This document shows, piece after piece, positions 62,301 to 64,000 of a DNA stretch of 64,000 nucleotides (the stretch's first letter is position 1; each line of letters begins with the position of its first letter). This DNA comes from Escherichia coli (GTDB taxonomy: Bacteria; Pseudomonadota; Gammaproteobacteria; Enterobacterales; Enterobacteriaceae). The position numbers are program-made. Where the stretch lies: NCBI RefSeq assembly GCF_017348835.2, contig NZ_CP071375.1. The stretch is one strand, 5' to 3'.

Positions 62301-64000
62301 AGAAGTTGATATGGGGACTGATACTAAAAAATATGCCGGCAAAGAACGCGCCAATAGCATAGCCAAAAGATCCCCAGGCGCGCGCTGTTCCATATTCGAA
62401 ATGAAAATTTCGCGCCATTTTTTCGGTGAAGCTGTCAAGCAAACCGCATCCCGCCAGATACCCCAAGCCAAAAAAGAGCGCCCCCAGAATTAGACCTACA
62501 GAAAAATTGCTTTGCAGTAACGGTTCATAAACGTAAATCATAAACGGTCCGGTCAAGACCAGGATGAAACTCATACACCAGATGAGCGGTTTCTTCAGAC
62601 CGAGTTTATCCTGAACGATGCCGTAGAACATCATAAATAGAATGCTGGTAAACTGGTTGACCGAATAAAGTGTACCTAATTCCGTCCCTGTCAACCCTAG
62701 ATGTCCTTTCAGCCAAATAGCGTATAACGACCACCACAGCGACCAGGAAATAAAAAAGAGAAATGAGTAACTGGATGCAAAACGATAGTACGCATTTCTG
62801 AATGGAATATTCAGTGCCATAATTACCTGCCTGTCGTTAAAAAATTCACGTCCTATTTAGAGATAAGAGCGACTTCGCCGTTTACTTCTCACTATTCCAG
62901 TTCTTGTCGACATGGCAGCGCTGTCATTGCCCCTTTCGCCGTTACTGCAAGCGCTCCGCAACGTTGAGCGAGATCGATAATTCGTCGCATTTCTCTCTCA
63001 TCTGTAGATAATCCCGTAGAGGACAGACCTGTGAGTAACCCGGCAACGAACGCATCTCCCGCCCCCGTGCTATCGACACAATTCACAGACATTCCAGCAA
63101 AATGAACCGCCCCGGAAATCCTGGAGACTAAACTCCCTGAGAAAGAGGTAAACAGGATGACTAAAAATACTCGTTTTTCCCCCGAAGTCCGTCAGCGGGC
63201 GATTCGTATGGTTCTGGAAAGTCAGGATGAATATGACTCACAGTGGGCGGCAATTTGTTCCATTGCCCCAAAGATTGGCTGTACGCCGGAGACTCTGCGT
63301 GTCTGGGTTCGCCAGCATGAGCGGGATACCGGGAGTGGTGATGGTGGACTCACCACCGCTGAACGTCAGCGTCTGAAAGAGCTGGAACGTGAAAATCGTG
63401 AACTGCGCCGCAGTAACGATATCCTTCGCCAGGCTTCCGCTTATTTTGCGAAGGCGGAGTTCGACCGCCTCTGGAAAAAATAATGCCACTGCTGGATAAG
63501 CTGCGTGAGCAGTACGGGGTCGGACCGGTATGCAGCGAACTGCATATTGCCCCGTCAACGTATTACCATTGTCAGCAACAGCGACATCATCCGGATAAAC
63601 GCAGTGCCCGTGCGCAGCACGATGACTGGCTGAAGAAAGAGATACAGCGCGTATACGATGAAAATCACCAGGTATACGGTGTGCGTAAAGTCTGGCGTCA
63701 GTTGTTACGGGAAGGTATCAGAGTGGCCAGATGCACTGTGGCACGTCTCATGGCAGTTATGGGACTTGCCGGTGTTCTCCGGGGTAAAAAGGTCCGCACT
63801 ACCGTCAGCCGGAAAGCCGTTGCCGCATGCGACCGCGTAAACCGTCAGTTCGTGGCAGAACGTCCAGACCAGTTGTGGGTGGCTGATTTTACCTGGGTAA
63901 GCACATGGCAGGGCTTCGTTTATGTGGCGTTCATCATTGATGTGTTCGCCGGATACATCGTGGGATGGCAGGTCTCATCATCCATGGAAACAACATTCGT

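Follow-up and report, generated by a model that had tools for sequence, protein, structure and literature searches.

In the 64,000-nucleotide stretch of Escherichia coli DNA analyzed in this study (the window), the fructokinase gene cscK is interrupted near the right edge by an insertion sequence (IS). Sequence comparisons indicate that the insertion is recent, clean, and strain-specific. The best explanation, which is considered probable, is a recent lineage-specific IS insertion that split cscK and would be polar on cscB, with a sucrose-negative or sucrose-delayed phenotype as the expected outcome. The missing half of the gene and the promoter lie just outside the window, the edge of which can mislead. 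An earlier note on this DNA was upheld in part: cscK is cut exactly at the left end of the IS, which now separates cscB from the operon promoter, whereas the supposed loss of the upstream gene and promoter, and an outward-reading promoter at the IS end, were not borne out.

Organization of the csc locus

The features identified around the insertion are listed in Table 1. On the minus strand, the order from right to left is the IS (left end at 63103), a 211-nt cscK frame, a 71-nt spacer, and the 415-codon cscB. The argW gene is a chromosomal landmark adjoining the csc island, and the DUF4942 ORF located between argW and cscB is a relic of an integrated element.

The cscK remnant consists of 69 sense codons, a stop codon (TAG at 62892..62894), and one additional base, in line with the roughly 70 C-terminal codons estimated in the earlier note. 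Its 69 residues align to positions 235-302 of the 302 positions in the NCBIfam fructokinase model NF006957 (E 5.8e-27) and bear the PfkB C-terminal motif DSTGAGDAF. At the nucleotide level, the remnant is identical to the last 211 nt of the intact cscK genes of strains DSM 103246 and F2_81. The adjacent CscB carries the substitution K193Q relative to the widespread allele WP_001197016.1, is otherwise the same as this allele, and is identical to the CscB of F2_81. Because K193Q is common to F2_81, it evidently predates the IS insertion.

According to the RefSeq tables of PE164, F2_81, DSM 103246, and O157:H7, cscK lies upstream of cscB in the same orientation, followed by the divergent cscA and then cscR, and the locus adjoins argW and truncated dsdX/dsdA. 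A csc island that replaces part of the D-serine locus is a known arrangement. In PE164, the D-serine locus beside cscR (beyond the window, segment L001 16003-17567) has no dsdC, a 5'-truncated dsdX, and an intact dsdA.

Table 1. Features of the csc locus and the inserted element, in window coordinates.
Feature	Coordinates	Strand	Basis or remark
argW, tRNA-Arg (CCU)	61057..61131	+	ARAGORN; Rfam tRNA 63.4 bits; RefSeq
DUF4942 remnant ORF, 50 aa, between argW and cscB	61341..61493	+	WP_053882949.1 in PE164 and F2_81
cscB, sucrose:H+ symporter, intact, 415 aa	61573..62820	-	ORF; NCBIfam TIGR00882 oligosaccharide MFS transporter, 593 bits
cscK-cscB spacer, 71 nt, with the cscB ribosome-binding site	62821..62891	-	Same in strains with intact cscK
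cscK 3' remnant, nt 705-915 of the 915-nt gene, residues 236-304 and stop	62892..63102	-	Ungapped alignment
Target-site duplication AAA (3 bp), left copy	63100..63102		Right copy beyond the window, L001 12414-12416
IS3-family IS, IS629/IS1203 (IS3411) type, first 898 of 1310 bp	63103..64000	+ (transposase)	Boundaries, length, repeats
IS orfA, 108 aa, ends in A6 slippery stretch	63157..63483	+	ORF; NF033516 positions 1-86
ALIL pseudoknot, frameshift-stimulating RNA	63438..63554	+	Rfam RF01497, 120.3 bits (gathering score 50), E 4.9e-32
IS orfB, DDE transposase part, cut by the window end	63483..64000	+	Complete in PE164 (L001:11484-12368)

The matching genome PE164 and its relatives

Over positions 61000-64000, the window matches the E. 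coli PE164 chromosome (NZ_CP114128.1) with 100% identity. The last 12 kb of the window are likewise identical in their entirety, and four single-base differences from the RefSeq record of PE164 were found in the first 50 kb (window 1650, 26563, 43087, and 43476). The window therefore derives from PE164 itself or from a sister isolate or another assembly that is nearly identical to it. PE164, an O108:H9 aEPEC/ExPEC hybrid, came from a piglet in Nanjing that had bloody diarrhoea (PMC12233904). Sucrose and insertion sequences are absent from the text of the PE164 paper (PMC12233904), and no link between cscK and IS629 was found in the literature searched.

Directly past the 1310-bp IS, the PE164 chromosome contains the first 707 nt of cscK (annotated as a kinase pseudogene 'missing C-terminus'), the 215-bp cscA/cscKB control region, cscA, cscR, the 5'-truncated dsdX, and dsdA. 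The description of cscB in the earlier note as being without its upstream gene and promoter therefore does not hold for this genome. The pseudogene and the IS are already annotated in RefSeq, where the remnant included in the window appears as 'PfkB family carbohydrate kinase, incomplete, missing N-terminus' beside an 'IS3 family transposase'. The earlier note had also named an intact cscK elsewhere in the genome as evidence against its reading; no second csc copy was found in the PE164 chromosome at megablast sensitivity, where a chimeric query composed of the PE164 csc segment and 1 kb of the Sakai iee gene identified one place only.

The control region (215 bp), cscA, cscR, and cscB of PE164 are the same alleles as those of F2_81, an Australian pig strain, and the csc regulon is, as judged from these alleles, unchanged apart from the split cscK. 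The argW side of the locus differs between the two strains: a lambdoid prophage is present between argW and the DUF4942 remnant in F2_81 (L007 1-5441) and absent from PE164 (window 61132..61572), and the two strains become identical from 225 nt upstream of the remnant ORF onward. Even between near-identical csc loci, the argW site is variable.

Two additional observations were made elsewhere in the window. The rpnB gene, which encodes a recombination-promoting nuclease (16904..17806, minus strand), contains an internal stop after codon 39, and the PE164 annotation lists it as a pseudogene. The second concerns a yfdF-like hypothetical protein (357 aa; 57532..58605, plus strand), which carries an (Asp-Ile)n repeat and varies in length by strain, with 430 aa in DSM 103246 and 352 aa (yfdF) in O111:H8.

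Identity of the IS element

The element shows the traits of the IS629/IS1203 (IS3411) group of the IS3 family, including a length of about 1.3 kb, TG...CA ends, imperfect terminal repeats, a duplication in the range of 3-4 bp, a -1 frameshift between orfA and orfB, and an ALIL pseudoknot. Its termini read TGAACCGCCCCGG...CCGGGGCGGTTCA, and 22 of 25 positions agree between the left repeat, starting from 63103, and the right repeat. The A6 stretch of orfA is the site for -1 programmed frameshifting into orfB. In the complete PE164 copy, orfB scored 312.6 bits on the IS3 family transposase model NF033516 (cut-off 160) and the orfA part scored 44.2 bits. The PE164 transposase is annotated as intact (WP_394814037.1) with a 'programmed frameshift' in RefSeq.

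In comparison to the copies annotated as 'IS3-like element IS1203' in O157:H7 4276 and O111:H8, the IS has 52 differences over 1310 positions (96.0% identity, no gaps), a comparison that does not tell the names IS629, IS1203, and IS3411 apart. IS1203v is another name of IS629 (PMC9330008).

About 30 more places in the PE164 chromosome match the query, and these are mostly IS copies. Given these further matches and a transposase annotated as intact, the element is probably active in PE164. The 13-nt IS terminus (TGACCCGCCCCGG) also has a match with one mismatch at window 48462..48474 on the minus strand, which has no IS around it and is probably due to chance.

Boundaries of the insertion and reconstruction of cscK

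Alignment to an intact cscK placed the breakpoint at the IS terminus, as the earlier note had claimed: identity to cscK ends at 63102/63103, where the terminus TGAACCGCCCCGG... starts, making the reported position of about 63103 exact. The cscK frame also runs into the IS as described, and remains open for approximately 36 codons past the junction. Through an ungapped comparison with the intact cscK of DSM 103246, the IS was delimited to 1310 bp in PE164 (segment L001 11104..12413), which corresponds to window 63103 through window-equivalent 64412, and the window ends after the first 898 bp. The IS lies antisense to cscKB, with its left end toward cscB. It divides cscK in two, leaving 707 nt of the 5' part beyond the window and 211 nt of the 3' part within it (62892..63102).

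The empty site, as preserved in DSM 103246 and F2_81, reads GCAAAATGG and includes AAAA, while the flanks of the IS in PE164 carry four and three A residues, respectively. In the orientation of the gene, the target is a run of four T residues at cscK nt 705-708, in codons 235/236. When the IS and one duplicate were removed in silico, a 915-nt ORF was restored that encodes a 304-aa CscK identical to WP_001274878.1. The rebuilt protein scored 505.7 bits on the fructokinase equivalog NF006957 (cut-off 450) and matched Pfam PF00294 across residues 26-298 (E 2.6e-58). Rebuilt in this way, the PE164 locus equals that of F2_81, where cscK is intact, at 7,912/7,912 nt, a span that begins upstream of the DUF4942 remnant and reaches as far as emrY.

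Both the 3-bp target duplication and the empty site in a near-identical strain argue that the junction is not a chance pattern. In addition, a 120-nt junction probe matched in one piece in only one of 5,426 complete E. coli genomes, and this rarity, together with the identity of the rebuilt locus to F2_81, points to an insertion that is both recent and strain-specific.

The event is a simple insertion with a 3-bp duplication, accompanied by no deletion and no rearrangement. Within the window, nothing upstream of the IS is visible, as the window ends 898 bp into the element, and this view would also suit a deletion or rearrangement linked to the IS, in which the promoter and the 5' part of cscK were lost and cscB was orphaned. 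Such a loss is very improbable, however, since the IS in PE164 is followed at once by the other 707 nt of cscK, its promoter region, and then cscA and cscR, with a matching 3-bp duplication, and the rebuilt locus is colinear with and identical to that of F2_81; the duplication and the clean reconstruction refute it for PE164. An assembly artefact, where an IS copy was misplaced into cscK during repeat assembly, is extremely improbable. Repeats such as the approximately 30 further query-matching places, mostly IS copies, can mislead assemblers, and the four-base difference between the window and the RefSeq record suggests that more than one assembly or isolate may exist. Nevertheless, the 3-bp target duplication is perfect, the IS termini are exact on either side, and the ORF is restored cleanly, all of which are signatures of transposition and not of misassembly. 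The PE164 chromosome is also recorded as complete and circular. An artefact was rejected on account of the duplication and the clean reconstruction.

Predicted effect on CscK

Translation from the native cscK start would produce 236 CscK residues followed by 12 IS-encoded residues (EPPRVSWRVFYL), with a stop located 40 nt into the IS. The resulting 248-aa product is without the C-terminal 69 residues, which include the DSTGAGDAF sequence with the PfkB GAGD motif. In the PfkB kinases as a family, the GAGD aspartate and the nucleotide-binding segment belong to this missing part. Because the C-terminal GAGD motif is detached, CscK is predicted to be inactivated by the split.

A deletion of cscK is reportedly tolerated in E. 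coli W, as Sabri et al. are said to have described in 2013. Among STEC strains of CC119, sucrose-positive revertants repaired cscB and retained a cscK frameshift (PMC10132054). Based on both of these cases, the loss of CscK by itself should not abolish sucrose use.

Predicted effect on cscB

The cscK and cscB genes form one operon, which is read from a CscR- and cAMP-CRP-controlled promoter in the cscA-cscK intergenic region, and growth on sucrose requires cscB (PMC3938415). This agrees with the earlier note, in which cscK was placed ahead of cscB in the same orientation with the IS separating cscB from the operon promoter. The order on the minus strand is now the promoter region, the 5' half of cscK, the IS, the 3' remnant of cscK, and cscB.

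Between the premature stop and cscB, there are approximately 1.55 kb without a long ORF, which would be transcribed as antisense-IS and cscK remnant RNA. A C/G ratio of at least 1.5 was found in 11 of 50 overlapping 78-nt windows of the antisense-IS RNA, a count that serves as a crude proxy for Rho loading sites. Intrinsic terminator candidates on the antisense IS strand were limited to two with 5-bp stems, which are too weak to be the sole cause of polarity. Rho-dependent termination in untranslated RNA is the classical basis of IS polarity. Since the untranslated RNA is long and contains many C-rich, G-poor stretches, we infer Rho-dependent polarity, by which the expression of cscB is probably reduced; some read-through into cscB would be possible because the hairpins on the antisense strand are weak.

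Under the proposed mechanism, an IS629/IS1203-type element of 1310 bp would have transposed into the T-run of cscK, antisense to cscKB, and duplicated 3 bp, after which the split gene would encode a truncated, inactive CscK. While cscB would keep its coding sequence and ribosome-binding site, it would now be positioned behind about 1.55 kb of untranslated RNA, and most transcripts from the cscKB promoter would be ended by Rho before cscB is reached. The predicted phenotype is sucrose-negative or strongly delayed. It would be set by polarity on cscB and not by the loss of the kinase, because growth on sucrose requires CscB and can proceed without CscK. The altered sucrose phenotype anticipated in the earlier note is a reasonable prediction, and the change could be small, given that some isolates with intact csc loci show slow or no growth on sucrose (PMC11251922).

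The earlier note had also suggested that cscB might be driven by a promoter reading outward from the IS end. Scans of the minus strand for sigma-70-like sites directed outward from the left end of the IS identified none at 9/12 (0 sites in L001 10700-13400) and none at 8/12. In IS3-family elements, an outward -35 is present in the right end and an inward -10 in the left end (PMC9330008), and the right end in this case faces the 5' half of cscK, away from cscB. An outward promoter at the IS left end is supported neither by the scans nor by the family arrangement. The scans are insensitive and not decisive in either direction: the native csc promoters themselves score just 8/12, and weak promoters may escape detection. 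Two promoter-like sites at 8/12 were found in the cscK remnant (63035..63008 and 62918..62891), and these are present in all csc+ strains.

It is unlikely, although conceivable, that the insertion is real and cscB is still expressed enough, either by read-through from the native promoter or through weak promoter activity within the left end of the IS or within what is left of cscK. The strain would then stay sucrose-positive, because CscK is dispensable, and perhaps show altered regulation. For this outcome, the 1.55 kb of untranslated, C-rich RNA, a classical substrate for Rho-dependent polarity, would need to be passed, which is favored by the lack of a strong intrinsic terminator in the antisense IS, where only the 5-bp-stem candidates occur. 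Candidates for a promoter closer to cscB are the two 8/12 sites of the remnant, than which the native csc promoters score no better, but the IS left end is without a promoter-like site on the minus strand, the outward -35 of the family in the right end points away from cscB (PMC9330008), and an internal cscB promoter is not reported (PMC3938415). The retention of the ribosome-binding site and coding sequence of cscB is also in its favor, as is the compatibility of a cscK defect with sucrose fermentation in the CC119 revertants (PMC10132054).

With polarity on cscB as the preferred explanation, a return to sucrose use would need a rare, spontaneous, and precise excision of the IS. IEE promotes the excision of IS629-type elements in EHEC (PMC9330008, PMC9397093). 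The chimeric query with 1 kb of the Sakai iee gene found no iee in the PE164 chromosome at megablast sensitivity, matching one place only. IEE-assisted reversion was rejected on this basis, and it is this result that leaves rare precise excision as the expected route.

Significance of the insertion

The insertion is an ordinary one, of a kind already known in csc genes from Shigella, O157:H7, and O111:H8 genomes. Its direct importance is small, as it explains one pseudogene in one strain. The predicted sucrose-negative or delayed phenotype could matter for the biochemical typing of O108:H9 pig isolates. The locus also illustrates a very recent IS insertion in clean form, and a near-identical genome still has the empty site.

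Comparison with known insertions in sucrose loci

Insertions of the IS629/IS1203 type were found at other positions of the csc locus among complete E. coli genomes. The closest in arrangement is an insertion of IS1203 in cscK in an O157:H7 sub-lineage, represented by the eight genomes 4276, 9234, 2159, 2149, 1130, Gim1-1, NE92, and NCCP 13918 (L002 10783-13011). It shares with PE164 the gene, the IS type, the orientation (transposase antisense to cscK), and the neighboring genes. However, the O157:H7 insertion is located approximately 80 bp further 5' in cscK, with an annotated remnant of 294 nt versus 216 nt in PE164, it has a 4-bp duplication (CTTT), and its IS copy differs at 52 of 1310 positions. 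These differences indicate that the two are independent events.

Further insertions of this type were observed in cscB of O111:H8 (L004 6573-9133), at another site of cscB in a Canadian pig isolate (L008 2956-5516), in the cscK-cscA control region of CEC13091 (L009 5197-6727), and, in the opposite orientation, at the cscK-cscB junction of MA11 (L010 6625-8019). Hence, at least five independent csc insertions exist beyond PE164, and at least six in all; the search favored same-orientation insertions, and these counts support no conclusion on orientation bias. The csc locus looks like a recurrent IS target, and PE164 adds one more case to a known pattern in which csc genes are repeatedly struck by insertion sequences. 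A stronger claim would hold that the csc locus is a preferred, possibly selected target of IS629/IS1203-type elements in animal-associated and pathogenic E. coli, with PE164 as the newest case of a convergent shut-down or rewiring of sucrose uptake; as a variant, read-through or an antisense IS promoter would free cscB from CscR and cAMP-CRP. This claim is regarded as decidedly unlikely.

In Shigella, cscK and cscB are cut by IS1, IS3, or IS4 elements (PMC11251922). As in PE164, an IS disrupts cscK or cscB while cscA and cscR are intact. In contrast to Shigella, PE164 is an O108:H9 E. coli from a pig, in which a single recent insertion of the IS629/IS1203 type occurred with no further decay, and the junction is present in one genome only.

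A second comparison is offered by the Scr system. In E. coli F/ST62 isolates, an IS3 insertion in scrY was proposed to be polar on essential genes located downstream, and sucrose-positive colonies appeared on prolonged incubation (PMC11251922). In both cases, an IS3-family element has entered a sucrose operon at its first gene, which is dispensable. The scrY case differs in that it concerns the Scr PTS and not Csc, that the IS is 1.9 kb long, and that the phenotype was tested, whereas for PE164 it is predicted from the sequence.

Similarly, in STEC O121:H19, the IEE-mediated excision of an IS from lacZ is associated with delayed lactose utilization (PMC9397093). The two cases have in common an IS within a sugar-utilization gene, which makes the phenotype negative or delayed and reversible through excision. 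Unlike in O121:H19, enhanced excision is not expected in PE164, whose chromosome has no match to iee.

Finally, the STEC CC119 strains carry natural frameshifts in both cscK and cscB, and it is cscB, not cscK, that decides their sucrose phenotype (PMC10132054). Their mutations are 1-bp indels without polarity, whereas PE164 contains an IS in cscK and an intact cscB coding sequence.
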